This document shows, piece by piece, positions 19,454-63,957 of a DNA stretch of 64,000 nucleotides. Both the position numbers and the translations under genes were made by a program. Below the pieces are notes generated by a model. It worked only from the letters and a program-made list of their open reading frames with translations. It did no database searches and was not told where the DNA came from. The stretch is from an uncultured Leptospirales bacterium (lineage in GTDB: Bacteria > Spirochaetota > UBA4802 > UBA5550), in assembly GCA_964439325.1 (NCBI GenBank), contig CAYTNW010000008.1, forward strand, positions 69,440-133,439. The letters are read 5' to 3'. Numbering within the stretch: position 1 is the stretch's first letter; every line of letters begins with the position of its first letter.

Positions 19454-20740
19454 ATGGAATCAAAGTCCTACAACCCTTTTCATGTAGCTCAAAACCAGTT
19501 TGACAGCGTAGCAGCAATGCTTGATCTGGAGGATGGTGTAAGAGAATTATTAAGACAGCCCATGCGCGAATACCAGTTCACAATCCCTGTCCACATGGAT
19601 GATGGAACGGTCAAGATTTTTAAAGGATTCAGAATACAGCACAGTGATGCCCGCGGGCCGGCAAAGGGTGGGATCCGCTTTCACCCCCTTGAAACAGTTG
19701 ATACAGTCCGCGCACTTTCAATGTGGATGACATGGAAATGCTCTGTAGTAGATATACCGCTGGGCGGGGGCAAGGGGGGAGTTATTTGCGACCCGCATCA
19801 CCTCAGCGCGCGCGAACAGGAACAGATATGCAGAGGATGGGTGCGCCAGATAGCCCGGAACCTGGGGCCAGTTCTCGATGTGCCTGCGCCGGATGTTATG
19901 ACCAATTCTCAGCATATGCTGTGGATGCTTGACGAATTTGAAGCTATACATGGAGGGAGATATCCCGGTTTTATTACCGGAAAACCGGTCGGTATGGGTG
20001 GATCTCTTGGCAGAACAGAGGCTACCGGATACGGACTGATATATACACTGCGCGAGGCTTTAAGGGAGCATAAAATTGATCCCGCCAATACAACGGCCAG
20101 CCTGCAGGGGTTCGGTAATGTATCGCAGTATGCCGCTAAAATGTATGATCATCTTGGAGGAAAGATTGTCTGTGTTTCATGCTGGGACCAGGCGGACAAA
20201 AAATCCTACTCTTTCAGGAAAAAAAGCGGTATTGATGTAGATGAACTTTTTTCAATAACCGACAAGTTTGGCGGCATTGACAAGAGCAGAGCCCGTGATC
20301 TCGGCTATGAACAGCTCGATGGTGATGCGTGGCTTGAACAGGAGGTTGATATTCTGCTCCCTTCAGCACTTGAAAACCAGATCAACGCAAACAATGTTAA
20401 CAAAATTCATTCAAGGGTAAAATTCATCGCCGAAGGAGCCAACGGCCCCACAACACCAGAGGCCGATGAGGTGATAAAGAGCAGAGATATATTCCTTATC
20501 CCTGACTTTCTCGCCAATGCGGGTGGCGTCACATGCAGCTATTTTGAACAGGTGCAGTGCAATATGAATTATTTCTGGGAAAAGAAAGAGGTTCTTGATA
20601 AACTTGATATAAAGATGACATCTGCGTTTCTTGCGGTCAGCGAGCTTGCAAGGGGCAAAAAGCTTTACATGCGTGATGCTGCCTATATAATTGCTATTGA
20701 CCGGGTGGCTAAGGCGGTCAAGGCAAGAGGATGGGTCTGA
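19454..20740 (+). CDS. gdhA: Glutamate dehydrogenase (Glu/Leu/Phe/Val family)
   Basis: RGPAKGGIRFHP, MTWKC, GGGKGG, DVPAPD, GRTEATGYG, QGFGNV, EGANGP and NAGGVTCSYFE. Confidence 0.93.
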   Translation: MESKSYNPFHVAQNQFDSVAAMLDLEDGVRELLRQPMREYQFTIPVHMDDGTVKIFKGFRIQHSDARGPAKGGIRFHPLETVDTVRALSMWMTWKCSVVDIPLGGGKGGVICDPHHLSAREQEQICRGWVRQIARNLGPVLDVPAPDVMTNSQHMLWMLDEFEAIHGGRYPGFITGKPVGMGGSLGRTEATGYGLIYTLREALREHKIDPANTTASLQGFGNVSQYAAKMYDHLGGKIVCVSCWDQADKKSYSFRKKSGIDVDELFSITDKFGGIDKSRARDLGYEQLDGDAWLEQEVDILLPSALENQINANNVNKIHSRVKFIAEGANGPTTPEADEVIKSRDIFLIPDFLANAGGVTCSYFEQVQCNMNYFWEKKEVLDKLDIKMTSAFLAVSELARGKKLYMRDAAYIIAIDRVAKAVKARGWV

Positions 20741-20803
20741 TAAGACTGTCCGGCAGTAATGAATTTATGCAAAAAAATGATCTTATAAGCAAAGCGTTAT
20801 AAA

Positions 20804-23800
20804 ATGACTGATGCAAATTTATCAAACGATCAGTTGATAAACACACTCCGTGAACGTGCGAAGGAGTTGAACTGTCTGTACCAGGTTGAAGAGATTCTCG
20901 CCGGTTCCGACAGTTCTCTCCCGGACATGTTCAAACGGATAATTCAGATAATTCCGTCCGGCTGGCAGTATCCGGAAATATGCCAGGCCCGCATCAAATT
21001 CGAGGATACAGAATACAAAAACAGCGACCACATCCAGACGATATGGTCCGACACGGCTGAGATAAGGGTTGAAGACAAGGTTTCGGGTTTTATCGAAGTG
21101 TCATACATCGAGGAGGTTCCGCCCTCGGAGAAAGGATTTTTCCTGGAAAAAGAGCGCAAACTCATTGTTACAATTGCAGACCGTATAGGTCAGACTGTCT
21201 TTCACAGAAAGCTTGAAAGTCTGCTGCGTGAAATTGAAAACGCCGGGATGAAACTCTCAGAAAAATCCGACCGTGAATGGATGGTTGTAACAGGACTGTT
21301 GCGCAGAACTGATGAAAACCTTTATCACCATATTGCTCGAAAAATGATCTATCACCTTTTCTGGAACGGGGTAAAGGACGCAAAGCTGCTGCTCAATAAG
21401 TATAATACAGACCTGGACCGCAGCGACATTGCTAATCAGAACGAAACAAACAGCCCCAGCGTCAAACAGCCGAGAGACCTGCTGTTCGAGGTGAGCGACC
21501 AGGTCTTTCTTACTGCCTCGGAAAACATGAGCAACAACGAAATCATGTCCTGTATCCAGAAGTGGATAAATGAAAACAGGACAGGATTTCTTGTAAAAAC
21601 AATTGATTCAGGAAACGCAAAACTTAACGAGATAATTGATGCCATTCAGAGGTACAGGGCCATGATCGACAGCGATATGGCACTGGCGCCGTCTACGGAG
21701 AAGTGGCTGAGGATATCGCTGATAAGAAGGTTTTTCTCTGAAAGCACCGATTTCATAAACATAGCGAAGCGTCACCTCGAGGTTAATGACTTTTTCGAAC
21801 TTACAACTAAAATTATCCATCATGCCGGGAGCAGCGGAAAACTCGGAGGTAAAAGCGCAGGACTGTTTATGGCAAAGCATATTCTGCGTAAAGCCTCACA
21901 GGGGAATAATCTGCTGAAAAATGTCCGTACCCCGCTTACCTGGTATATTACCGCGGATTCTCTGACCGAGTTTCTGAGGTACAATGATCTTGAAGAGCTT
22001 AACGGGCAGAAGTATAAAGATCCGGAGCAGGTCCGGATTGAATACCCGAACATAGTTCAGCTTTTTAAAAACGCGCAGTTTCCTTCTGAAATAAAGAAAG
22101 GGCTTATGGTGGCCCTTGATGAACTCGGGACCAATCCGATTATTGTACGCAGCTCGAGCCTGCTTGAAGACAGGGTCGGCACAGCATTTTCGGGAAAATA
22201 CAAAAGCCTGTTTCTCGCGAACCAGGGGAGCAGGGAAAAACGGTTTGATGCTCTTCTTGACGCAATTTCAGAGGTCTATGCGTCTTTATTCGCGCCGGAC
22301 CCGATGATATACCGTTCGGAGCGCGGGCTGATTGATCTGCACGAAGAGATGGGCATCATGATACAGCAGGTTGTCGGCAGAAAGGCTGGTAATTACTTTT
22401 TCCCTTCATTTGCAGGGATTGCCTTCAGCAATAACGAGTACCGCTGGTCTCCCAGGCTCAAACGCGAAGACGGACTTATACGGCTTGTTCCCGGACTCGG
22501 CACGCGGGCAGTGGACAGGGTGAGCAATGATTATCCCGCAATGATATCGCCCGGACAGCCGGCTCTGAGGATCAACGTGAGCCCGGACGAGATAAGGCAC
22601 TATTCCCCGGCATTCATTGATGTTATCAATCTTCAGAAAAACTGCTTTGAAACGCTTCCGCTGGAACAGCTGTTCAGACAATACGGGGAGGAGATACCCG
22701 ATATTCACCAGATTGTATCAGTTTACAGTGACGGGCACATCTCCCGATCTTCGCGTTTTGATCTTGACTGTAAAAAAGATGACCTTATAGTAACATTTGA
22801 GGGAATAATTACCAGAACACCGTTTGTCAAACAGGTCAGTTCAATCGTAGCCGCACTCCAGGACGGTTTCGGCATGCCGGTTGATATAGAGTTCGCCTGC
22901 GATGGCACCGATTTTTATATCCTTCAGTGCAGGCCGCAGAATTCGGATGGGGAGAACGCTCCAAGCCCTATACCGCACGACATCCCGGAGAATAAAATAC
23001 TTTTTAATGCCAGACGTTTTATTTCAAACGGAAAGGTGCCGGAAATCACTCATATTGTCTGGATTGATCCTGCAAAGTATGCTGCGCTTGAAAGCCGGAG
23101 CGCGCTTGCAAGTGTCGGGTCTGCTGTCGGGAGGCTGAATTCGATATTGCCGAAGAGGCAGTTCATCTTGATGGGACCTGGTCGGTGGGGCAGCAGGGGA
23201 GATATAAAACTTGGCGTGCAGATAACATACGCTGATATCTGCAACACAGCGGTTTTGATTGAAATTTCAACGAGGAAAGGGGCGTATTCGCCTGAATTGT
23301 CTTTTGGCACCCATTTTTTCCAGGACCTTGTTGAAACCGGCATACGTTATATTCCTCTATATCCTGAAGAGAGGGAAATAATATATAATGAGATTTTCTT
23401 TACCGGTTCGGACAACATGCTGGCAGATATCCTGCCTGAATACGGATACCTGTCCGAAGTGATCCGTGTTATCGATATCCCAAGGCGCACCGGCGGAGAA
23501 ATTCTACGAATACTGCTGAATGCTGAACTTGGGGAAGCTCTGGCTTATTTTAGCGAAGTAAAGACTGCCGAAGAAACTGAAATATTCAGAACCACGCCGG
23601 CTGAACCGCAGCCGGATGATTTCTGGCGGTGGCGCATGCATATGGCTGAACATATCGCCGCCCGGATTGAACCTTCGCGTTTCGGAGTAAAGGCTGTCTA
23701 CGTTATCGGATCAACGTTAAATGCCACTGCCGGGCCATGCAGCGATCTTGACCTGCTTATACATTTTAACGGTTCGGAACAGCAGCGTGAAAAACTGCTG

Positions 23801-23992
23801 TTATGGCTGGAAGGCTGGAGCCTGAGCCTGGATGAGATGAACTACCTTAAAACTGGATATAAGACCGGGGGACTGCTTGATGTTCACATTATTTCAGATG
23901 AAGACATCTCATCGAGGTCGTCCTTCGCTGTGAAGATAAATGCCGTTACCGATCCCGCCCGTCCCCTTTCTATGAAAAGCCGCGTGTTCTGA
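20804..23992 (+). CDS. PEP/pyruvate-binding (PPDK_N ATP-grasp) domain protein with N-terminal GAF-like and C-terminal nucleotidyltransferase domains
   Basis: ERAKELNCLY...PSGWQYPEI; LGGKSAGL, IVRSSSLLED, FSGKYKS, DIEFA...YILQCRP; C-terminal IGST...SDLDLL. No PEP-binding barrel. Confidence 0.85.
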   Translation: MTDANLSNDQLINTLRERAKELNCLYQVEEILAGSDSSLPDMFKRIIQIIPSGWQYPEICQARIKFEDTEYKNSDHIQTIWSDTAEIRVEDKVSGFIEVSYIEEVPPSEKGFFLEKERKLIVTIADRIGQTVFHRKLESLLREIENAGMKLSEKSDREWMVVTGLLRRTDENLYHHIARKMIYHLFWNGVKDAKLLLNKYNTDLDRSDIANQNETNSPSVKQPRDLLFEVSDQVFLTASENMSNNEIMSCIQKWINENRTGFLVKTIDSGNAKLNEIIDAIQRYRAMIDSDMALAPSTEKWLRISLIRRFFSESTDFINIAKRHLEVNDFFELTTKIIHHAGSSGKLGGKSAGLFMAKHILRKASQGNNLLKNVRTPLTWYITADSLTEFLRYNDLEELNGQKYKDPEQVRIEYPNIVQLFKNAQFPSEIKKGLMVALDELGTNPIIVRSSSLLEDRVGTAFSGKYKSLFLANQGSREKRFDALLDAISEVYASLFAPDPMIYRSERGLIDLHEEMGIMIQQVVGRKAGNYFFPSFAGIAFSNNEYRWSPRLKREDGLIRLVPGLGTRAVDRVSNDYPAMISPGQPALRINVSPDEIRHYSPAFIDVINLQKNCFETLPLEQLFRQYGEEIPDIHQIVSVYSDGHISRSSRFDLDCKKDDLIVTFEGIITRTPFVKQVSSIVAALQDGFGMPVDIEFACDGTDFYILQCRPQNSDGENAPSPIPHDIPENKILFNARRFISNGKVPEITHIVWIDPAKYAALESRSALASVGSAVGRLNSILPKRQFILMGPGRWGSRGDIKLGVQITYADICNTAVLIEISTRKGAYSPELSFGTHFFQDLVETGIRYIPLYPEEREIIYNEIFFTGSDNMLADILPEYGYLSEVIRVIDIPRRTGGEILRILLNAELGEALAYFSEVKTAEETEIFRTTPAEPQPDDFWRWRMHMAEHIAARIEPSRFGVKAVYVIGSTLNATAGPCSDLDLLIHFNGSEQQREKLLLWLEGWSLSLDEMNYLKTGYKTGGLLDVHIISDEDISSRSSFAVKINAVTDPARPLSMKSRVF

Positions 23993-24031: not shown

Positions 24032-24241
24032 TTAGAGATGGTAGTTCCCGTTTGCTTCGGGCTGGTAGATGATCTGTTCAATTCGTATTTTTTTCATGCC
24101 TGCGGGAACTTCCCATGCAATTTCATCGCCGACCCTGTAGCCAAGGAGCGCTGTACCTATTGGTGCAAGCACGGAAAGCCTGTCGTGTTCAATATCCGCC
24201 TCTTCCGGGTAGACAATAGTATACACTCTCTGTTTTTCACC
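24032..24241 (-). pseudogene. rnk: 3' half of Rnk (GreA/B-family nucleoside diphosphate kinase regulator)
   Basis: YTIVYPEEA...SVLAPIGTALLGYRVGD...YQPEANGNYHL. An in-frame TAA lies just upstream and the N-terminal half is absent. Confidence 0.85.
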
Positions 24242-24275
24242 AAAAAAAAGAGGCCTTATTTATGGTCTCTTTTTT
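24242..24275. terminator. Bidirectional intrinsic terminator
   Basis: A8-GAGGCC-ttatttat-GGTCTC-T6, downstream of the HDOD gene. Confidence 0.75.
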
Positions 24276-24365
24276 GTCTGTAAGACGACTCCTGCTGCTC
24301 TCACTGACTGCAGGGTCGTTTATTTTCAGCCTGTCGAAATACGGCCTCTGAGCGGAGTCGAAGAG

Positions 24366-25226
24366 CTATGCCAGTTCCCTAAGCTGTTTATCCATTTCGG
24401 GAAGTTTTGAATAGAGCTCTTCAAGCTCGGCGTTTGTAATTTTCAGGGTCTCAATAGCTGCACTGCTCATCTGGTGATAGAGTCCGTCGCTCCCCACTCC
24501 GAAACCTGCCATGAGACAGAGAGTATTGGCGATATGTACTGCCGATACCTCGGCCTTGAACTCGGCGGGTGCGCTTTCAGGTTCCGCGTAGAATCTTACT
24601 ATGGCCTTCAGAACAGCGGGGAAATTCCATTTTTCCAGGATTTTCTCGCTTATCTCCTGATGGCTGTATCCCATGATCGCTTTTTCAGCTTCATTAAAGG
24701 TAATGTTTTTTGTTTTAACCTCGTTCAGGATATCCTTATATGTGCTCTGGACATAGATTGCTATGACCGTTTTCCCTACATTATGAATAATGCCGCCGGT
24801 AAAAACCACGTCAGCGATATCTTTACGGTTTTTCAGCAGGGCTATCTTTTTTGCCAGGTTGGCAACCATAAGGCCCTGTTTCCAGAGTTCCCCTTTGCCA
24901 AGATCGTAGCCTATTACAAATTTGTCGAGGACCGGTTTTGCGGCTATAACCATGACAATCCCTGTGAGTTCTTTAATTCCTATGCTCACAATAGCCCTGT
25001 CGATTGATGTAATCTCCTTCCCCCTGCTGAAGTAGGCCGAATTGCAGAGTTTTAGAATATTGGTGGTCATCGACTGATCTTTTGATATCTCCTCAGCGAC
25101 ATCTTTGAAAGACACTTCCGGATTATTTACCATGTTAAGAATTTTTGAAGCAATCTCCGGCACTGTCGGAAGAGCTGCAAGATTATTTATTGTACTTTCA
25201 ATTCTCTGTTTTATATCTGCGTGCAT
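24366..25226 (-). CDS. HDOD domain protein
   Basis: LPTVPEI, ISKDQSMTTNILKLCNSAYF, GGIIHNVGK, SHQEI and WNFP. Confidence 0.92.
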   Translation of the reverse strand: MHADIKQRIESTINNLAALPTVPEIASKILNMVNNPEVSFKDVAEEISKDQSMTTNILKLCNSAYFSRGKEITSIDRAIVSIGIKELTGIVMVIAAKPVLDKFVIGYDLGKGELWKQGLMVANLAKKIALLKNRKDIADVVFTGGIIHNVGKTVIAIYVQSTYKDILNEVKTKNITFNEAEKAIMGYSHQEISEKILEKWNFPAVLKAIVRFYAEPESAPAEFKAEVSAVHIANTLCLMAGFGVGSDGLYHQMSSAAIETLKITNAELEELYSKLPEMDKQLRELA

Positions 25227-25243
25227 GTAAAATACCCCGGATT

Positions 25244-25732
25244 TTATCCAACCTTATAGTAATTTTTTTCCTGACCGGCTGCCTTAACCTTAAGACGGCC
25301 ATCCACCATGTAAAAGTCGATGACCCGTCCGGAACATCCCCCTGTGTCCTCATCTACAAGCGGGATCTGGAGTTTCTCGAGCATTTTTTTTGTTATTTCA
25401 ATATTCCTGTCACCGATCTGACCGAGAGAGGCGTTTGATTCGAATTTAAACATCGAGGCGCCGCCGGCAATCTTGGCCGATAAAAATTCCTTCTTCGCCC
25501 CCTCTTTCAGAAGCCTCTGAACAAGAAGTGGTATAGCGGTATCAGCATATTTTTCAGGATTGGCGCCGTGGACGGTATCAAGGGGGAGCAGAACATGCGC
25601 CAGTCCGCCTATTTTCTTCATTCTGTCGTATATGCAGATCCCGACACAGCTCCCGAGGATTGTGCGCAGAACATCCGGTTCCTTGGCCAGTTTGACCTGT
25701 GCGACCCCTACATTTACAAGTGTTTCGCTCAT
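25244..25732 (-). CDS. cheD: Chemoreceptor glutamine deamidase
   Basis: TILGSCVGIC, GGLAHVLLP, KYADTA, AKIAGGA and IGDRN. Confidence 0.95.
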   Translation of the reverse strand: MSETLVNVGVAQVKLAKEPDVLRTILGSCVGICIYDRMKKIGGLAHVLLPLDTVHGANPEKYADTAIPLLVQRLLKEGAKKEFLSAKIAGGASMFKFESNASLGQIGDRNIEITKKMLEKLQIPLVDEDTGGCSGRVIDFYMVDGRLKVKAAGQEKNYYKVG

Positions 25733-47025: not shown

Positions 47026-48504
47026 GTGATCGGTAAATCGAGCTATATTATCGTATTTATATCAGCATTGGCTATTTCAGGTATTCTTGTTCCTTTTATA
47101 ATATTAATCTGTAAAAAATTCAATTTTTTTGACAGAATTGATGAACGGAAAAACCATAAGCACCAGGTGGGGAGGCTCGGCGGAGTAGGGATTGTAGCCT
47201 CTTTTTCAGCGGTTTTCTATTTTTTTATCAGGGAATATATACCTGTAGGAATTTCAGTAGGCTTTATATCAGCCTCTTTTATGCTGATTTTTTTGATGGG
47301 CTTCATAGATGACCTCAGGGGCCTGCGGGTCAGGTATAAGCTGTTTGCTCAGATTCTGGCCTCCTCCCTTGCCGTATATGGAGGGGTATGCCTCCCGGTG
47401 GTTGAATCCTTTAATATTGTTACAGAATACTCCATATATATTGATCCCGTTCTGACTGTGTTCTGGATTCTGGCTTTTATGAATGCGGTGAACCTTATTG
47501 ACGGAATGGATGGTCTTTCGTCGGGGATAGTTTTGACGGCCCTTGTTTTTTTTGCCGCAGTGGGTATACACAGCGGAAATTCCCTGCTGATTATGATCTC
47601 GATGGCTCTGGCCGGCAGTGTAGCCGGGTTTTTTATCTATAACTTTCATCCAGCGAAAATTTTTCTCGGTGACGCGGGCGCTTACTGCATCGGTTTTATT
47701 CTGGCGCTGATATTTCCCGTCTGTTTTGACGGTATAGTCAGCCTTAAAGTGACCCTTGTCCCTGTGGTGATTTTTCTTATCCCTTTCATGGATGTAGCCC
47801 AGGTGGTCACAAGACGTTTATGGCTGAAGACCGGCATTTTCAGGGCAGACAACAATCATATCCATCACAAGCTCCTTGCCGCCGGTTATAACTGCATCAG
47901 CGTGCTGGGGATTATCAGTTCAATAGGTGTAATTTTCGGATGCCTGGGAGTACTGGTCTGGAGAGAGAACAGCGTCTCATGTTTTTATATCTTTATTGTT
48001 ACCTTTATATTTGTATCGATTCTGCTTTTCAAACTCTCTTCAATTGAAGACCGTACAATCAAGCTGTCGAGCCTGGCTGAACCCGGATTCAAATGGTGGA
48101 AGCAGAGCCTGAGGTTTTATTCCGAAAGCGTCTTTATCAGCACGTTAAACGTCAACGGCAGAAAGAAGTCTCTGGTGGGCAACGTCTATGACCTCTCCAC
48201 CGACGGTTTTTTTTATGCCACAGATGCCGTCCTCAATCCTGAAGACAGGCTTTCGATTATTCTGATGTTCATAGACAGAAAGCCTCTGAGGCTTACCGCC
48301 GAGGTCGTATGGACAAATACAAAGCCGAACTCAAATTCTCTGCCGAAAGGATACGGCTGCTGTTTTGTCGGGATAAAAGCCCTTGCGCGTAAAAGAATTA
48401 AATATCATCTGATTTCCAACAAGGCCCCTCTGAGGCTCAGGGTTAAAAAAGAGGAGAGGCCTGCGTCAGTTATAAGAATAATTTCCGGGGGTAGGGTTTT
48501 ATAG
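47026..48504 (+). CDS. wecA: WecA/MraY-family undecaprenyl-phosphate GlcNAc-1-P transferase with a C-terminal PilZ-like domain
   Basis: RLGGVGI, GFIDD, NAVNLIDGMDGL, IFLGDAG and HIHHKL; tail KQSLR...DLSTDG...AEVVW...GYGCCF. Confidence 0.88.
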   Translation: MIGKSSYIIVFISALAISGILVPFIILICKKFNFFDRIDERKNHKHQVGRLGGVGIVASFSAVFYFFIREYIPVGISVGFISASFMLIFLMGFIDDLRGLRVRYKLFAQILASSLAVYGGVCLPVVESFNIVTEYSIYIDPVLTVFWILAFMNAVNLIDGMDGLSSGIVLTALVFFAAVGIHSGNSLLIMISMALAGSVAGFFIYNFHPAKIFLGDAGAYCIGFILALIFPVCFDGIVSLKVTLVPVVIFLIPFMDVAQVVTRRLWLKTGIFRADNNHIHHKLLAAGYNCISVLGIISSIGVIFGCLGVLVWRENSVSCFYIFIVTFIFVSILLFKLSSIEDRTIKLSSLAEPGFKWWKQSLRFYSESVFISTLNVNGRKKSLVGNVYDLSTDGFFYATDAVLNPEDRLSIILMFIDRKPLRLTAEVVWTNTKPNSNSLPKGYGCCFVGIKALARKRIKYHLISNKAPLRLRVKKEERPASVIRIISGGRVL

Positions 48505-50015: not shown

Positions 50016-51395
50016 ATGAGTATAATGAAAAAAATATCGGATATAGAAGCAGTAATAAAACAGGGAGAAAGTCAGACTGTTGAATTTAAGCAGTCGTTTG
50101 ACAAAGAAGCCATTGAGACTGTATCTGCTTTTGCAAATAGCAGTGGAGGAATTTTAATTATCGGTGTTAAAGATAATGGAGCAGTCTCTGGAATAACTAT
50201 AAGTAGAGAAACTGTACCGCAGTATATAAACCAGATTAAAAATTCCACTGAACCGTCTTTGATTGTGGATATAATATCTTTCGAGATAGAAAAAAAGAAT
50301 ATTCTGGTTATTAAAGTCGATGAGTTTCCGATTAAACCGGTAAATTATAAAGGAAGATATTTTAAAAGGGTATCGAACAGTAACCATCAGATGACGCCGA
50401 CAGAAATATCAAATTTACATATGCAGTCGCTTCAGTTGTCATGGGATGCGTATTTTTCCAATGAAAATTTACAGAAAGAGATTGATCCGGAAAAAGTAAA
50501 AAATTTTTTTGATAGAGTAAACAAAACCGGAAGATTTGTTCTGAACGCAACATTTGAGGAAAACCTGCAGAAACTTAATCTGTTAAAAGACGGAAAAATT
50601 ACAAATGCGGCATGGCTGCTGTTTTCAAAGGAACAGACTGTTTATAATATACATATAGGACGTTTCAAAACTCCATCCATGATTTTAGATGATAAAATGA
50701 TTAAAGCCGCCCTCTTTGAAGCTGTAGATGAAGTAATGCTTTATATCCTGTCTCATATCAAGGTGGCGTTTGAGTTTACCGGAGACATAGAGCGCAGGGA
50801 AATATTTGAATATCCTAAAGAAGCAATCAGAGAGCTCGTATTAAATGCAATAGTTCACAGGGACTATACCAGCTCCGTGGATGTCCAGATAAAAATATTT
50901 GATAAGTCCATAACGTTTTTCAATCCTGGAAAATTATACGGCGATCTTACCGTTGAGCAGTTGAAGACAGACTCTTACCAGTCCAGGACAAGAAATAAAC
51001 TCATAGCGGAAGCTTTTTATCTGACTGGTGATATAGAAAAATACGGAAGCGGGTATATACGAGTAAGAGAGGCTATTGCAAGTTATCCGACAATGAAGTT
51101 CGAATATCAGGAGACTGGTGACGGTTTTTTAGTGACTTTACGTTATGAAAAACAAAAGACTACCCAAAAGACTACCCAAAAGACTACCCAAAAGACTACC
51201 CAAAAGACTACAAAACAGTTGATCCTTGATTTGATCATATCTGATCCGGCAATCACAAGAGAAGAACTGGCAGATAAAATCGGAGTAACGCCCGATGCGG
51301 TTAAACAGCATATGGCAAATTTGAAAAAGGATGGAATTATTAAAAGATCAGGCGGGAGGAAAGGGGGCAGATGGGAGGTAATTTCAGATGATTGA
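50016..51395 (+). CDS. AlbA_2/Schlafen-like domain, HATPase-like domain and C-terminal wHTH protein
   Basis: GESQTVEFK, SAFANSSGG.LIIGV, AIRELVLNAIVHRDY, IEKYGSG and a terminal HTH (LKKDGIIKRSG..KGGRWEV). Confidence 0.88.
   Translation: MSIMKKISDIEAVIKQGESQTVEFKQSFDKEAIETVSAFANSSGGILIIGVKDNGAVSGITISRETVPQYINQIKNSTEPSLIVDIISFEIEKKNILVIKVDEFPIKPVNYKGRYFKRVSNSNHQMTPTEISNLHMQSLQLSWDAYFSNENLQKEIDPEKVKNFFDRVNKTGRFVLNATFEENLQKLNLLKDGKITNAAWLLFSKEQTVYNIHIGRFKTPSMILDDKMIKAALFEAVDEVMLYILSHIKVAFEFTGDIERREIFEYPKEAIRELVLNAIVHRDYTSSVDVQIKIFDKSITFFNPGKLYGDLTVEQLKTDSYQSRTRNKLIAEAFYLTGDIEKYGSGYIRVREAIASYPTMKFEYQETGDGFLVTLRYEKQKTTQKTTQKTTQKTTQKTTKQLILDLIISDPAITREELADKIGVTPDAVKQHMANLKKDGIIKRSGGRKGGRWEVISDD
51153..51212 (+). 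repeat. In-frame 12-bp tandem repeat, five copies (QKTT)
   Basis: CAAAAGACTACC four times plus CAAAAGACTACA. Confidence 0.95.
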
Positions 51396-52733: not shown

Positions 52734-54023
52734 TTGTATAAATTTATAAAATATAAGTTGAAAGTTGAAAGCAATAAACGGCTCATCTCAAATTTTATTT
52801 CCCTTGCGGTTCTTCAAGGGGCATCATACATTTTACCGCTTATTACATTGCCCTATCTTGTGCGCGTGTTGGGACCGGAAAGATTTGGACTAGTTGCTTT
52901 TGCAACATCAACTGTAGCATATTTTCAGGTAATTACTGATTACGGATTTGATTTATCTGCGACAAGACATGTATCAATAAACCGAGACAATAATGAAAAC
53001 CTTATTGAAATATTTAGTTCTGTAATAGCGATCAAATTTATATTGATGTTTGTTAGTTTGATTTTATTGTCTATTATTATTTTTTCTTTTGAAAAATTCA
53101 GTGTTAATTGGAAGATTTATTATTTAACTTTTGGGATGGTTTTAGGCCAGATTCTTTTTCCGGTATGGCTTTTTCAGGGACTTGAAAATATGAAGTATAT
53201 TACAGTGTTAAATATAGTAGCAAAGTTGATTTTTACTGTAGCAATATTTGTTGTGGTTAAAACAGAAAATGATTATTTGTATGTACCATTATTAAATTCA
53301 ATAGGGATACTTATTGCAGGAATCAGCGGATTTGTTATTTCTATAAAAATGCTTAATGTGAAATTTAGTTATAGAAAAATATTATTGAAAAAATATGCTA
53401 TATCCAGTTTTCCTATCTTTGGATCAGTTGTATCTTCATCTATATTATACAATAGCCCGGCGCTTTTACTCGGTACACTAACTAATTATCATATCGTTGG
53501 TCTTTATTCCGCTGCTGAAAAAATTATATATGCGATAAGAAGTTTTTTATATATTTTTCATCAGACAGTTTTTCCACGATTGTCAAAACTTTATTATGAC
53601 AATATCAATAAATACTTTTACCTGTGGAAAACATTTTTTCTTGTAATTGTCATTGTATCATTTTCTGTTGCAATAATCTGTAATATTTTTTCCGAAACAA
53701 TAACAAACGTTATTTTTGGTTCAAATTTTTCCGAAAGTGGAGAGATTTTTAAAATTTTATCCATAACCATTATGACGTATTCAATTTATACTATGTTAGG
53801 TTTGGAAAGCCTGATTATAACTGGCCATACGAAACAGTTGGTATATTCTCAAATAATTCCAATTATTATTTATTTAATTATTTCACCATTCGTCTTGAAC
53901 TATTTAAGTATAATTCCTTTTGTTTTTTGCTTAATTATTGCAGAATTCATGATAATAATAATCAGATTATTTTTTTTAAATATGAATGGTTTCTTTTCTT
54001 TAAATAAAAAATATGATAAATAA
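52734..54023 (+). CDS. wzx: O-antigen/polysaccharide flippase
   Basis: LPLITLPYLVRVLGPERFG, TDYGF, FPVWLFQG and VGLYSAAEKI; polytopic. Confidence 0.92.
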   Translation: MYKFIKYKLKVESNKRLISNFISLAVLQGASYILPLITLPYLVRVLGPERFGLVAFATSTVAYFQVITDYGFDLSATRHVSINRDNNENLIEIFSSVIAIKFILMFVSLILLSIIIFSFEKFSVNWKIYYLTFGMVLGQILFPVWLFQGLENMKYITVLNIVAKLIFTVAIFVVVKTENDYLYVPLLNSIGILIAGISGFVISIKMLNVKFSYRKILLKKYAISSFPIFGSVVSSSILYNSPALLLGTLTNYHIVGLYSAAEKIIYAIRSFLYIFHQTVFPRLSKLYYDNINKYFYLWKTFFLVIVIVSFSVAIICNIFSETITNVIFGSNFSESGEIFKILSITIMTYSIYTMLGLESLIITGHTKQLVYSQIIPIIIYLIISPFVLNYLSIIPFVFCLIIAEFMIIIIRLFFLNMNGFFSLNKKYDK

Positions 54024-55012: not shown

Positions 55013-56239
55013 ATGAAAATTACAATTATTAATCAACATACATCAAATCGTGGGGATGAGGCAGCAGCTAAGGCTCTCCTTAGAGCCATTAAAAAATACT
55101 CAGATTTGATTGAATCAATAGATATTGTGTATAATAGACAAAATATTTTGAAAAAGGATGATGAAATTAGTATAGAAGGATTGTCTATCTCTCATCATAG
55201 TAGTGGAAATTTTATGTTAGTTGATAAACTTATAATGATGGCAACATTTTTATTTCCTTTTCAATTAGCAAAGATTTTGATAAAATTTAGTAATTGGCAG
55301 GATGAACTAAAATTGATGGAGAAAGCGGATGTAATAATTAGTTCTCCATGCGGAGTAAATATGGGACTTTATCAGGATTGGCATTACCTATGGAGGTTGT
55401 TTGTTTCTGTAAAGCTTAATAAAAAAGTTGCTATTTATTCAACCTCATTTGGTTTTGTGGAAAGTAAAAGGTTTAATTTTTTATCATACCTTTTTAATAA
55501 AGTAAGTATGTATGTTCTCAATCATATAGATTTTCAATCATATAGAGATAGTAAAAGTCAAGAATTAGCTAAGTCCTTGAAATTAAATTATATTGATTCC
55601 ATTGATACTGTTTTTCTAGATAGTTATTATGAATCGGATTTACCAGATAATTTAAAGTTTTTAAATAATATGGATTACGTAGTTTGTGTTACTAATGAAT
55701 TATATAATTGGCATCCAAATTTTAAAAACATAAAAACTGATAAATTAGATAAAATTTATGTTAATATAATTGATAATTTTTTGAATAAAAACATTTCAGT
55801 AATATTACTCCCACAATTATTTGGTTTAGTTAATGATGAAAAGTATTGTTCATTATTAAGAGAAAAGTCGTGTGACAAATCAAATGTATATGTTATACCT
55901 GAACTCACTAATTCAGATATACATCAGTGCATTATTAAAAAATCTATATTTGTCATCGGAGGGAGATATCATTCAAGTGTATTTGCAATAAGAAACAGTA
56001 TACCATTTGTCTGTTTATCCTATGAGCATAAGATGGAATATATGCTGTCAATATTGAATCTTAGTTTTTTAAATATTGACCTTAATAGTATAATAAAAGG
56101 TAATTTAGATTATATGGATAAGATTAATAAATATTTTGATAGCAAAGATATAATAAATATTGCTGACGCTCGTAAAAAAGCTATTTCAATAGCAAATAAT
56201 ACTTTTTCTGTTTTTTGTAAGGATTTTTTGTTTAAATAA
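55013..56239 (+). CDS. Polysaccharide pyruvyl transferase family protein
   Basis: SNRGDEAA, YRDSKS, IGGRYHSSVFA and LSYEHKM. Confidence 0.87.
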   Translation: MKITIINQHTSNRGDEAAAKALLRAIKKYSDLIESIDIVYNRQNILKKDDEISIEGLSISHHSSGNFMLVDKLIMMATFLFPFQLAKILIKFSNWQDELKLMEKADVIISSPCGVNMGLYQDWHYLWRLFVSVKLNKKVAIYSTSFGFVESKRFNFLSYLFNKVSMYVLNHIDFQSYRDSKSQELAKSLKLNYIDSIDTVFLDSYYESDLPDNLKFLNNMDYVVCVTNELYNWHPNFKNIKTDKLDKIYVNIIDNFLNKNISVILLPQLFGLVNDEKYCSLLREKSCDKSNVYVIPELTNSDIHQCIIKKSIFVIGGRYHSSVFAIRNSIPFVCLSYEHKMEYMLSILNLSFLNIDLNSIIKGNLDYMDKINKYFDSKDIINIADARKKAISIANNTFSVFCKDFLFK

Positions 56240-57452: not shown

Positions 57453-58718
57453 ATGAAAATTGATTTTAAACCGCTTTTTTATAAGTTAGGGAATATTTTA
57501 TTTTTTTTAATGCTGGTTTTTCCTAGAACACAGCAGATGATAAAAATTCCATTAGTAATTTTAGTATTTATCCCAATAATTTATATAATAGTGACAACGA
57601 GAACAGTAAATTTGTCAAAAACAGTTGGGATTTGGTTTTGTTTCTATTTTGCATATAGTTTTATATGGATTTGTATTGGGGCATTAAACAGCAATCCTGG
57701 AACTTTTGATTATTTAAAACTAAACATATTCTGGGGACTATTATATGCCACATTTATTGTTGGTATAAAGGATATTGAATATTTTTTTTCTTTAGTTCGC
57801 ACAATGATTTATTCCTGTATTGGTATTGTCGTTGTAAATGTAATATTAATTCTATGTACGTTGAATATACTACCTTCAGAATTAATGGTGATCTCTGATA
57901 GAGAAACAAGTGTAGGTATTTATAGTGGTTTTGTACATCTGACTTCTTATAATATAGGTACACTTGCTTTCTTAACTCCATTTATATTTTCATTGTACTA
58001 TCTAATGGATGATTTTGAATATAATATTTTAGATGTAAAAAAAAATTTATTGGCATTTGTTTATTTCGCAGTTTTTATTATATCGATTTTATCTGGTAGA
58101 AGAGCGTTATGGTTGAATATTTTATTAACTTTTCCAATGTGTTATTTAGCTCTTTTTTTTATAAAAAAAAGGCGACAAGTATTTTTCCGATTAACAAAAC
58201 AAATTATCATAATCACAATTTTTATATTTTCAACTGCAATTTTAATAACCAATAATTTAAATTGGAATATTAATGATTTTACTTACCGGTTTACATCTGC
58301 GTTTACTGATGAAACGGAGAGAACAGATCAGTATATTGCATTAATGAATGTATTCTATGATAATTTTATATTCGGTTCAGGTTTCGGTAAAGGTGTAAAT
58401 CAATGTATTAGAAAGCCTGAAGCACCATGGCAATATGAATTATCTTATATTCTTCAACTTTATAATACCGGAATTTTAGGTATGACATTTTATATTCTCC
58501 TTATTTTCTCTGTATATTATTTAATCTATAAAAATATGTCTAGTTATATTAATAAAGAATATATGTTTATTGGTTTATCATTACTGATCGGATTATCAAA
58601 TTTTTTATTTGCAAATGCAACAAATCCGACTTTATATACTTATGATTTTATGTGGGTCTTATTTTTTCCGATCGCCTTAATAAATGTTTTAATTAAGAGG
58701 AAATATAATGATCAATGA
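57453..58718 (+). CDS. wzy: O-antigen polymerase (Wzy-like)
   Basis: Polytopic, with LSGRRA, FGSGFG, YELSY and ATNP; located in the flippase locus. Confidence 0.72.
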   Translation: MKIDFKPLFYKLGNILFFLMLVFPRTQQMIKIPLVILVFIPIIYIIVTTRTVNLSKTVGIWFCFYFAYSFIWICIGALNSNPGTFDYLKLNIFWGLLYATFIVGIKDIEYFFSLVRTMIYSCIGIVVVNVILILCTLNILPSELMVISDRETSVGIYSGFVHLTSYNIGTLAFLTPFIFSLYYLMDDFEYNILDVKKNLLAFVYFAVFIISILSGRRALWLNILLTFPMCYLALFFIKKRRQVFFRLTKQIIIITIFIFSTAILITNNLNWNINDFTYRFTSAFTDETERTDQYIALMNVFYDNFIFGSGFGKGVNQCIRKPEAPWQYELSYILQLYNTGILGMTFYILLIFSVYYLIYKNMSSYINKEYMFIGLSLLIGLSNFLFANATNPTLYTYDFMWVLFFPIALINVLIKRKYNDQ

Positions 58719-61721: not shown

Positions 61722-62828
61722 ATGAAGGTTTTAGTAACAGGAGCGGATGGTTTTATTGGAAAAAATCTGTGTATAGCACTGGGGCGAATTAATAACATTG
61801 AATTATATAAATATGATATAGACAGCTCAGTCGAGGAATTGAATAACTATCTTTTAGATGTCGATTTTATATTCCATCTGGCAGGTGTCAACAGACCTGA
61901 AAAAGATGAAGAATATAATGATAATGCTGAATTTACGAAACAGATTTGTGAAATATTAAAGAAGCATAATAATCCGGCAACTGTCATCTTCTCTTCATCA
62001 ACTCAATCTATCCTTGATAATACTTACGGGAAAAGTAAAAAAAATGCGGAGGATTATCTAATTGAATATAGTAAAAAATTAAATTCTCTGGTATGCATTT
62101 ACAGATTTCCAAATGTTTTCGGAAAATGGTCAAAACCTAATTATAACTCAGTGGTATCAACATTTTGTTATAACATATCTCATGATCTTGAGATTTCAAT
62201 ATCGGATAAAAGCAGAATCATTGAATTTGTTTATATTGATGATGTTGTTCATTGTTTTCTTGACAAGCTTGAAAAAACTTTGAATGGAGATCAGTTATTT
62301 TATGATGACTATCAAACATATAAAATTTCTCTTGGAGATCTTGCAGATAGAATAAAGTTTTTTAAAGAGATGCGTACTACATTGGTTATTGATGATCTTT
62401 CAGATAATCTGAATAAATATCTGTATTCGACTTATCTTTCTTTTTATGAAAAAGATAATTTTATATATTCTCTCGATAAAAAGGTTGATGACAGGGGATG
62501 GTTGTTCGAATTACTGAAATCAAAACATCTTGGCCAGATTTTTATTTCAAAAACAAAACCAGGTATAACCAGAGGGAATCATTATCACGATACAAAGGTT
62601 GAAAAATTTTGTGTCATAAGCGGTACTGCATCAATAAAATTACGACATATTATTGATAATTCAACAATAGAATACATTGTTAATGATGAAAAGATTCAGA
62701 TTATTGATATACCTCCAGGTTTTACACATTCAATAAAGAATATCGGGAATAAAGATTTAATGACAATTTTCTGGGCTAATGAAATATTCAACCAAGATAA
62801 GCCGGATACATATTTTCTTGAGGTATAG
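61722..62828 (+). CDS. fnlB: UDP-2-acetamido-2,6-dideoxy-hexulose reductase (FnlB/WbjC/CapF)
   Basis: TGADGFIG, HLAGVNRP, PNVFGKWSKPNYNS and C-terminal cupin RGNHYH. Confidence 0.93.
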   Translation: MKVLVTGADGFIGKNLCIALGRINNIELYKYDIDSSVEELNNYLLDVDFIFHLAGVNRPEKDEEYNDNAEFTKQICEILKKHNNPATVIFSSSTQSILDNTYGKSKKNAEDYLIEYSKKLNSLVCIYRFPNVFGKWSKPNYNSVVSTFCYNISHDLEISISDKSRIIEFVYIDDVVHCFLDKLEKTLNGDQLFYDDYQTYKISLGDLADRIKFFKEMRTTLVIDDLSDNLNKYLYSTYLSFYEKDNFIYSLDKKVDDRGWLFELLKSKHLGQIFISKTKPGITRGNHYHDTKVEKFCVISGTASIKLRHIIDNSTIEYIVNDEKIQIIDIPPGFTHSIKNIGNKDLMTIFWANEIFNQDKPDTYFLEV

Positions 62829-62829
62829 C

Positions 62830-63957
62830 ATGTCAAAATTAAAGGTTATGACTGTAGTTGGAACACGTCCCGAAATAATCCGGTTATCATGTGTAATTAA
62901 AAAATTAGATTCATCCTGTGCGATTGAACACCTTCTGGTTCATACAGGCCAGAATTATGATTATGAATTAAATGAAGTATTCTTTAAAGACCTTGGACTC
63001 CGAAAACCGGATTATTTTCTTGATGCTGCGGGCAAGAATGCAACCGAGACTATTGGTAATATTATAATAAAAATTGATCAGGTTCTTGAAAAAGAAAATC
63101 CAGATAGTTTTCTTGTACTTGGTGATACGAATAGCTGTCTCTGCGCGATACCTGCGAAAAAGAGAAAAATACCGATCTTTCATATGGAAGCGGGGAATAG
63201 GTGTTTTGATCAACGAGTACCAGAGGAGACTAATCGTCGCATAGTTGATCATATAAGCGATATTAATCTTACATATAGCTCAATAGCAAGAGAGTATCTT
63301 CTTAGTGAAGGTCTACATGCAGACCGCGTTATTAAAACAGGGAGTCCGATGTATGAAGTTATACATTCTATTCTTCCTGAAATCAATTCAAGTATGGTAC
63401 TGTCAAAATTTAATTTGAAAGAAAATGGTTTTTTTCTTATTTCAAGTCATCGAGAAGAAAATATTAATTCTGAAAATTTTTTTGATCTTGTTAAAGTACT
63501 CAATCAGATTGCTGAAATATACAAGATCCCTGTCCTTGTGTCAACTCATCCCAGAACAAGAAATAGAATTGAAGAGACCGGAGTTAAATTTAATACCTTA
63601 GTCCAGTTATTAAAACCACTCGGTTTTATCGATTATCTTGCACTACAATTAAATGCAAAAGTTGTTTTATCGGATAGTGGTACCATTTCTGAAGAATCTT
63701 CTATATTAAAATTTCCAGCCCTCAATATTCGTGAAGCTCATGAAAGACCAGAAGCAATGGAAGAGGGAACAGTCTTGATGGTAGGTCTAAATCCAGTAAG
63801 AGTGCTGCAGGGAATAGCTGTTCTTGTAGATAATTTGAATAACGAAAGGATTCACATCGTAAAAGATTATGATGTAGATAATGTTTCAGAAAAGGTTTTA
63901 CGGATTATTTTAAGCTATACAGATTATGTTAATCGTGTTGTCTGGCAAAAAATATGA
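62830..63957 (+). CDS. fnlC: UDP-N-acetyl-hexosamine 2-epimerase (FnlC/WbjD/CapG)
   Basis: VGTRPEIIRL, HTGQNYD, HMEAGNRCFD, SHREEN, SDSGT and ERPE. Confidence 0.94.
   Translation: MSKLKVMTVVGTRPEIIRLSCVIKKLDSSCAIEHLLVHTGQNYDYELNEVFFKDLGLRKPDYFLDAAGKNATETIGNIIIKIDQVLEKENPDSFLVLGDTNSCLCAIPAKKRKIPIFHMEAGNRCFDQRVPEETNRRIVDHISDINLTYSSIAREYLLSEGLHADRVIKTGSPMYEVIHSILPEINSSMVLSKFNLKENGFFLISSHREENINSENFFDLVKVLNQIAEIYKIPVLVSTHPRTRNRIEETGVKFNTLVQLLKPLGFIDYLALQLNAKVVLSDSGTISEESSILKFPALNIREAHERPEAMEEGTVLMVGLNPVRVLQGIAVLVDNLNNERIHIVKDYDVDNVSEKVLRIILSYTDYVNRVVWQKI

Follow-up and report, generated by a model that had tools for sequence, protein, structure and literature searches.

A conserved glutamate dehydrogenase-linked protein with sensor, ATP-grasp and nucleotidyltransferase domains, a candidate covalent regulator of the dehydrogenase

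Glutamate dehydrogenase (GDH) connects carbon metabolism with nitrogen metabolism. Control of glutamine synthetase by the GlnE/GlnD/PII cascade is classic; we know of no dedicated modifying enzyme of bacterial GDH. Protein modification by a small nucleotidyltransferase is exemplified by MntA, which AMPylates a protein, its HEPN toxin. Here we analyse a 64,000-nucleotide (nt) stretch of DNA from an uncultured Leptospirales bacterium (contig CAYTNW010000008.1, positions 69,440 to 133,439; hereafter the window), in which a gdh gene is followed by a gene for a 1062-amino-acid (aa) multidomain protein, here called BIG. A sequence-only reading had put BIG forward as a candidate covalent regulator of GDH, analogous to GlnE, that may phosphorylate or NMPylate GDH or a metabolite. 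From the conservation of the gene pair we hold with high confidence that BIG is functionally coupled to GDH. Our preferred reading, that BIG consumes ATP to modify, covalently and under the control of a signal, the GDH encoded upstream, to which it is dedicated, is a tentative one, to which we give slightly less than an even chance.

The gdh gene (19454..20740, + strand) encodes a 428-aa hexameric family-I GDH, the conserved upstream partner of BIG, which matches the Pfam families ELFV_dehydrog_N (E = 1e-53) and ELFV_dehydrog (E = 6e-69). Among solved structures, that of Thermococcus profundus GDH is closest (1euz; full-length match at E = 4e-120), and by comparison with it the window protein keeps the PLGGGKGGV / GGGKGG motif with the catalytic lysine. 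The NCBIfam model GdhA_Arch scores 464 bits, under its equivalog cut-off of 750, so the window GDH represents a distinct subgroup. The open reading frame (ORF) for BIG (20804..23992, + strand) begins after a spacer of 63 nt (20741..20803, + strand); the coordinates thus bear out the spacing and shared orientation first read from the sequence. No terminator-like hairpin was found on the + strand of the spacer, and gdh and the BIG gene are probably co-transcribed. In the source annotation BIG is labelled only 'PEP/pyruvate-binding domain-containing protein'.

Homologues of BIG fall into more than 6500 protein clusters, and full-length relatives (about 1060 aa) are 55–60% identical across phyla; the number of homologous clusters and this strong cross-phylum conservation establish that the gene is real. 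A genome scan in which each GTDB species was represented once found BIG in at least 583 species-level genomes. The phyla include Spirochaetota, Planctomycetota, Kiritimatiellota, Fibrobacterota, Acidobacteriota/Aminicenantes, Ignavibacteriota, Bacillota (Syntrophomonadaceae) and Zixibacteria, among others, and the relatives bear source labels as varied as 'PEP/pyruvate-binding domain-containing protein', 'pyruvate, phosphate dikinase', 'pyruvate, water dikinase' and 'nucleotidyltransferase domain-containing protein'. Linkage to GDH was counted over the best 80 loci of each scan (this one and a metagenome scan described below). A tblastn search of the 80 genome loci with the window GDH placed a related GDH beside the homologue in nearly all of them, and the 73 loci in which 1.5 kb or more of sequence precedes the first ATP-grasp gene were taken as informative. 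A GDH 63–82% identical to that of the window lies at most 2.6 kb upstream of the BIG homologue in 69 of these 73 species-representative loci, on the same strand as BIG in 67 of the 69, and the linked loci cover more than 15 phylum-level lineages. Absence of linkage to gdh had been named beforehand as one observation that would refute the proposal, and the proposal was not refuted in this way. At the other end of the scale, the nearest relative of the window locus, whose BIG protein is 82% identical, has only the gdh–BIG ORF pair in common with the window, with unrelated flanks. Kept both in the closest relative and in distant phyla, the pair is a conserved unit at short and very long evolutionary distances.

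The GDH proteins of these cassettes also carry a mark of their own. When 70 cassette GDHs were aligned with the T. profundus enzyme, a cassette-specific insertion appeared at aa 243–254 ('CWDQADKKSYSF'; 20180..20215, + strand), which lies in the loop that follows strand two of the dinucleotide fold and is absent from T. profundus GDH. Its consensus is 'CWDQxDxxSYxF', with W244 invariant and the Ser/Ala-Tyr pair conserved. A second small insertion occurs in cassette GDHs near aa 273–285. Speculatively, these cassette-specific insertions could be docking or modification sites.

The domain order claimed for BIG, a sensor followed by ATP-grasp, middle and nucleotidyltransferase (NTase) domains, is upheld by Pfam, by an AlphaFold2 (AF2) model built on 57 homologues (mean predicted local distance difference test score, pLDDT, 77.5) and by Foldseek searches of that model against the Protein Data Bank (PDB). 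Each motif quoted in support of it (ERAKELNCLY, LGGKSAGL, RSSSLLED, DIEFA..LQCRP, GPGRWGS, GST..SDLD and LDVH) is present in the translation. Invariant residues were scored over 57 full-length relatives from many phyla.

The N-terminal module, aa 6–140 (20819..21223, + strand), contains the ERAKELNCLY motif and the invariant residues E17, R18, K20, E21, L22, C24, Y26, G53 and C60. It had been described as GAF-like. The predicted fold supports this, as residues 1–150 of the AF2 model (pLDDT 81–91) match the GAF structures 8jrc_B (the NifA GAF domain) and 3cit_A with a Foldseek probability of 0.99–1.0, matches that are weak by E-value (0.1–0.3; TMt 0.5–0.6); no sequence hidden Markov model (HMM) does so, with no Pfam GAF match even at E ≤ 10. 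The module also resembles sensor regions of histidine kinases. In some loci the cassette is directly preceded by genes for a histidine kinase and, after it, an NtrC-type sigma-54 activator (L003:1202-3843(+) and L061:600-3570(+), where the L number denotes the locus). The sensor regions of these two kinases are 35–36% identical to BIG aa 6–139 (E = 1e-20 and 1e-23). Because the module is common to BIG and to histidine kinases beside some cassettes, the view that it is a genuine signalling input domain, and that BIG is signal-responsive as first proposed, is supported; the shared module further suggests that one signal controls both transcription of the cassette and the system at the enzyme level. 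A linker follows at aa 150–345 (21251..21838, + strand), predicted by AF2 to be all-helical and without a Pfam match.

The ATP-grasp nucleotide-binding domain, aa 346–727 (21839..22984, + strand), is of the PPDK_N family (Pfam PF01326, E = 1e-58). K350 in LGGKSAGL, R449 in VRSSSLLED, and E696, Q708 and R710 in DIEFA..LQCRP are invariant. By Foldseek its nearest structure is rifampin phosphotransferase (5hv3, E = 3e-14), aligned over the roughly 400 columns of the ATP-grasp, with PEP synthase (2ols) and pyruvate, phosphate dikinase (PPDK; 1kbl) also matching. A clear PPDK_N domain, in a family with members labelled 'pyruvate, phosphate dikinase' or 'pyruvate, water dikinase', would suit a divergent and possibly split PEP synthase or PPDK serving gluconeogenesis from amino acids, with the gdh adjacency reflecting shared catabolic regulation. 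However, BIG has no Pfam match to PEP-utilizers (PF00391) or to the PEP-utilizers_C barrel; its C-terminus is a nucleotidyltransferase where the PEP/pyruvate TIM barrel would be expected, and no conserved neighbour supplies one. The NCBIfam models for PEP synthase, PigC and rifampin phosphotransferase match the ATP-grasp region only, at 20–62 bits against cut-offs of 600–1300 (600–1060 for the PEP synthase equivalogs); NF004881 gives 62.4 bits against 883, TIGR01418 gives 60.4 against 739.75, and NF041857, the model for rifampin phosphotransferase with its ATP-grasp, rifampin-binding and C-terminal swivel His domains, gives 48.4 against 999. Sensor and NTase domains are likewise foreign to PEP synthase and PPDK. 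We therefore agree with the sequence-only reading that BIG is not one of these enzymes and regard a role in gluconeogenesis as very improbable.

A conserved domain without a name, aa 728–930 (22985..23593, + strand), always follows the ATP-grasp domain in this superfamily and is a candidate phospho-carrier. Two motifs dominate it. In the first, GPGRWGS (aa 791–797; 23174..23194, + strand), the pattern G-x-G-R-W-G is invariant in the 121 domain copies compared; the second, SFGTHFF (aa 833–839; 23300..23320, + strand), contains His837 and conforms to G[ST]HFF in 119 of the 121. Within the BIG family the invariant stretches extend further, to G791-P-G-R-W-G-S-R-G799 and S833-F-G-T-H837-F-F-Q-D841.

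The C-terminal domain, aa 940–1062 (23621..23989, + strand), is a minimal nucleotidyltransferase (MNT) of the pol-beta type, with Pfam matches to NTP_transf_2, Polbeta and MTPAP-like. NTP_transf_2 (PF01909) matches aa 958–1004 at 26.2 bits against a cut-off of 21, and the isolated domain scores 30.6 bits; the fold is matched by 2rff, 8xeh_E and 7ae9_G in Foldseek. Its predicted active site, which fits the family pattern hG[GS]-x9-13-D-h-[DE] with a third carboxylate on a later strand, comprises G969-S970-x10-D981-L-D983 (GST..SDLD, 969–983) and D1026 in LLDVH, of which G969, S970, D981 and D1026 are invariant and D983 is at least 90% conserved. With the ATP-grasp, unnamed-domain and NTase residues all invariant, the three putative active centres are under strong selection. 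The NTase also yields two weak matches, one to MntA (NCBIfam, E = 0.0055) and one to PDC-S09, a PADLOC candidate (E = 9e-6), as would be expected of a defence or toxin–antitoxin-type MNT system unrelated to metabolism. These matches span only some 37 residues of the generic MNT core, however, and no HEPN partner is present. Among the other cassette proteins the only defence match is a weak one between PDC-S10 and the metallophosphoesterase described below (E = 3e-7), and the linkage is to a housekeeping enzyme and conserved across phyla. We give a defence function next to no credence.

When all ORFs of the 80 genome loci were clustered, only three conserved families emerged, namely GDH, PPDK_N proteins and an approximately 287-aa metallophosphoesterase. 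The second of these includes, besides BIG, a protein of about 580 aa that we call mid, encoded between gdh and BIG in about 45 of the best 80 loci. Mid consists of a PPDK_N domain and a C-terminal domain that aligns with BIG aa 728–930 and carries the motifs GFGRWGS and SQGSHFF. The mid gene shares a 4-nt overlap with the BIG gene (L006:4256-6004/6001-9192 and L045:4256-5992/5989-9147), and in some Ignavibacteria-like lineages (P0055, P0063 and L072:2799-7754) the two are fused into proteins of about 1630–1650 aa with two ATP-grasp domains. Since they are translationally coupled or fused in many lineages, mid and BIG probably act as a complex. The metallophosphoesterase gene lies downstream of the BIG gene, usually convergent to it, in 37 of 69 loci (for example L045:9177-10037(-)). 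Its product matches Pfam Metallophos with all metal-binding motifs invariant; neither single-sequence nor profile searches found a characterised close relative, the nearest proteins being the hypothetical aq_1956 and YfcE. In one deltaproteobacterial metagenome-assembled genome, the gene directly downstream of BIG (L058:9374-12973(+)) specifies a large GDH-like protein of 1199 aa that has an ELFV_dehydrog domain.

Fusion and translational coupling of mid and BIG indicate that the system forms assemblies, and the very tight linkage of gdh and BIG, together with the high conservation of both partners (63–82% identity for GDH and 50–68% for BIG across the genome loci), would fit a stable complex. 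BIG might then be a non-covalent partner, a nucleotide- and metabolite-sensing subunit that acts on GDH allosterically, with its sites serving ligand binding or auto-modification only. The invariant catalytic sets (the ATP-grasp Lys/Arg/Glu/Gln, the NTase DxD..D and His837) nevertheless favour turnover over binding, and such a partner would leave the frequent metallophosphoesterase unexplained. We judge this alternative improbable.

Mid also bears on the nature of the unnamed domain. That domain occupies the position of the swivel domain in PPDK and PEP synthase, whose histidine, in a GG-x-[TS]-[SC]-H-[AT]-A motif, carries the phosphoryl group. By sequence, the earlier statement that no phospho-His motif is recognisable stands. 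Pfam gave no match to the domain at E ≤ 10, a profile of 18 diverse copies found no dikinase among all PDB sequences, and hhalign comparison with the swivel domains of E. coli PpsA and PtsI gave a probability below 1%; the top PDB profile match, to the FNIP repeats of Crov588, was set aside as spurious. A homologue search with the domain alone yielded mostly fragments of genes. We make no claim of homology to the swivel domain. The statement is nonetheless too strong, given the invariant G[ST]H histidine, His837, at the swivel position. An hhalign comparison of the mid family with PpsA (probability 82%) continues past the ATP-grasp domain and reaches the first swivel-domain hairpin of that protein. 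The mid model, a confident one (pLDDT 88.5; predicted TM-score, pTM, 0.86), aligns by Foldseek with PPDK over about 680 columns and with rifampin phosphotransferase, whose His domain is not collinear, over about 400; its C-terminal domain has no independent Foldseek match. In this model the G[ST]H histidine opens a helix after a β-strand and a Gly-containing loop, the same local setting that the TSH histidine has in PPDK and enzyme I. The position of the domain, the reach of the hhalign and Foldseek alignments, the conservation of G[ST]HFF and the modelled setting of the histidine together make His837 a candidate phospho-carrier.

A third group of PPDK_N proteins extends the association with GDH. 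These REC-type paralogues, of about 1000 aa, have one or more receiver domains, a weak DUF5752 match, PPDK_N and the same GRWG/G[ST]HFF domain, without an NTase. They occur in genome loci (L054:10690-13677(-), L063:10032-13265(-), L070:9143-12181(-), L018:2707-5721(+) and L081:13066-16071(-)) and in metagenome loci L087–L166, the 80 best loci obtained by searching metagenome contigs with an alignment of REC-type proteins. In L081 the REC-type dikinase-like gene forms one operon with a metallophosphoesterase gene (L081:12174-13088(-)) and a gene for a GAF-HD_5 protein. The GDH beside REC-type genes is gdhA-type and only 31–35% identical to the window GDH. It lies directly upstream on the same strand in 44 of the 61 metagenome loci with enough upstream sequence; a further GDH lies directly downstream in 8 of the 55 with enough downstream sequence, and in seven REC-type loci a GDH gene stands on both sides. 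What BIG, mid and the REC-type proteins have in common is the ATP-grasp domain and the unnamed domain, the latter 21–28% identical among them with the same invariant motifs. Subfamilies with different inputs are thus each tied to different GDH classes, which suggests that their functional partner is GDH itself and not a particular pathway.

If BIG does modify GDH covalently, the domains suggest a sequence of events. The N-terminal module, with its GAF-like predicted fold shared with histidine kinases, would sense a metabolite, and the PPDK_N domain, whose catalytic residues are intact, would bind and cleave ATP. The β-phosphoryl group would then pass to a histidine, for which His837 is the candidate, as happens in PEP synthase, PPDK and rifampin phosphotransferase. 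From there it would be delivered to GDH, the target suggested by gene linkage, switching its activity or its coenzyme use. The NTase, with its intact active site, could add a second modification of nucleotidyl type or process the first, and the likely eraser would be the metallophosphoesterase, whose gene lies downstream in roughly every second cassette but is missing from the window. We infer the phospho-His relay, the role of GDH as direct substrate, the division of labour between dikinase and NTase, and the eraser function of the phosphoesterase.

Several observations weigh against this scheme. Gene neighbourhood alone designates GDH as the putative target. Homology of the middle domain to a phospho-His swivel domain is undetectable by HMM or profile–profile comparison, and residues 796–847 of BIG, the most conserved stretch, are modelled by AF2 at a pLDDT below 50. 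The role of the NTase is unexplained, as its relatives mid and the REC-type proteins do without one. Within the 64-kb window there is no mid gene, no metallophosphoesterase gene and no second protein with the sensor module, and the nearest relatives of the window locus likewise lack mid and the metallophosphoesterase. Finally, to our knowledge the characterised PPDK_N enzymes all phosphorylate small molecules or glucans (pyruvate, rifampin, phenol, prodigiosin precursors or starch), never a protein.

The substrate range of these characterised ATP-grasp relatives speaks at the same time for a different function, in which BIG would be a dikinase and NTase for small molecules, acting on a GDH-related metabolite (2-oxoglutarate- or glutamate-derived) or on an effector that acts on GDH, with GDH as its pathway neighbour. 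The best structural and HMM matches of BIG, to rifampin phosphotransferase, PEP synthase, HpeI and PigC/RedH, would agree with it; minimal NTases count small molecules, aminoglycosides for instance, among their substrates, and the metallophosphoesterase could equally hydrolyse a phosphorylated metabolite. Yet the cassette conserves no pathway enzyme and no extra substrate-binding domain of the TIM-barrel or rifampin-binding kind. The core is linked to at least three GDH classes and sometimes sits between two GDH genes, which argues for an enzyme rather than a pathway as its partner, and sensor and receiver domains are typical of regulators. On balance we find a small-molecule substrate rather unlikely, though the likeliest of the alternatives.

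Covalent modification of GDH by BIG can be drawn out into a broader proposal. The gdh cassette may be the first dedicated covalent switch of a bacterial GDH and hold the first PPDK-type dikinase to modify a protein through a phospho-His relay, with the NTase adding a second mark, the metallophosphoesterase erasing, and the REC-type paralogue doing likewise for other GDH isoenzymes under two-component control; this fuller version is possible, and we hold it loosely. The family is concentrated in uncultivated anaerobes that live on amino acids and peptides and for whose catabolism GDH is a key enzyme. If the proposal is right, nitrogen and amino-acid metabolism would gain a new layer of regulation, dikinase chemistry would reach a new type of target, and a function would be assigned to two large families of 'PEP/pyruvate-binding domain-containing protein', to the unnamed domain and to an orphan metallophosphoesterase family. 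A system that modifies a protein in this way would be without precedent. Were the substrate a small molecule instead, the cassette would still point to a metabolite not yet known and tied to GDH.

Around the gene pair, the window contains further genes. Directly after BIG, an 81-aa ORF (24038-24283, + strand) has no family match and no counterpart in the related loci, and is probably not a gene. Convergent to BIG lie genes for a 286-aa HDOD protein (24366-25226, - strand) and for CheD (25244-25732, - strand). The HDOD gene sits where other loci have the metallophosphoesterase; it was considered as a stand-in for that enzyme and rejected, being near none of 160 related loci; its place by BIG looks like coincidental adjacency. 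Farther downstream, G+C content falls from about 45% to 25–33% between 50000 and 64000, where a surface-polysaccharide gene cluster is found that includes genes for a Wzx-type flippase (52734-54023), a polysaccharide pyruvyl transferase (55013-56239), a Wzy_C protein (57453-58718) and epimerases/dehydratases (61722-63957). The cluster was probably exchanged horizontally. At its low-GC border stands a gene with Schlafen/AlbA_2, HATPase_c_4 and winged-helix domains (50016-51395, + strand), and ahead of it one for a Glycos_transf_4 protein with a C-terminal PilZ domain (47026-48504, + strand), which may be a c-di-GMP-controlled priming glycosyltransferase.

A full-text literature search found no description of the BIG family, of a GDH-linked dikinase or of an enzyme dedicated to modifying bacterial GDH, and BIG is best placed by comparison with several known systems, each of which it resembles in part. 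The earlier parallel with GlnE survives as an analogy of regulatory logic, which extends to GlnD: like these enzymes, BIG as proposed would be a large signal-integrating enzyme with a pol-beta NTase site (G[SG]..DxD), a target in ammonium assimilation and an opposing removal activity. The parallel does not extend to the domains themselves, as Pfam and NCBIfam find in BIG, at E ≤ 0.1, neither the NTase and GlnE_C domains of GlnE, each present there in two copies, nor the NTase, HD and ACT domains of GlnD. GlnE and GlnD lack an ATP-grasp dikinase module and act on glutamine synthetase and PII, whereas BIG has a minimal NTase of the MNT type, some 120 aa long. Nearest in proposed role are PpsR/PDRP and AceK, which provide dedicated reversible phosphorylation of one central enzyme and are encoded beside or near their target. 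Their folds (the DUF299 kinase/pyrophosphorylase and the AceK kinase-like fold, respectively) are unrelated to BIG, whose chemistry would use ATP-grasp and a histidine instead.

MntA-type MNTs share the Pfam NTP_transf_2 family and the fold of the BIG C-terminus. Unlike MntA, the NTase of BIG has no HEPN partner and is fused to a 940-aa sensor/dikinase body, and the NCBIfam MntA model scores it at 16.6 bits against a cut-off of 60. The pairing of mid with BIG recalls phenylphosphate synthase and the split dikinases of the HpeHI type, in which a PPDK_N protein works with separately encoded subunits, and HpeI (9goj) is among the best structural matches. The split dikinases differ in having a recognisable PEP-utilizers His subunit of their own, no such subunit being conserved in the gdh cassette, and in their aromatic small-molecule substrates. 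With the PPDK_N dikinases rifampin phosphotransferase, PEP synthase and PPDK, BIG has in common the ATP-grasp motifs and, in the place of the central His domain of PPDK, a further domain, which has an invariant G[ST]H; like rifampin phosphotransferase, it has no pyruvate/PEP barrel. It departs from these enzymes in lacking a detectable swivel sequence, a TIM barrel and a rifampin-binding domain, in adding a sensor and an NTase, and in its genomic association, which is with GDH and not with antibiotic resistance or gluconeogenesis. By its sequence, then, BIG is an enzyme of the PPDK_N dikinase superfamily whose architecture is new, as is its conserved partner in the genome.

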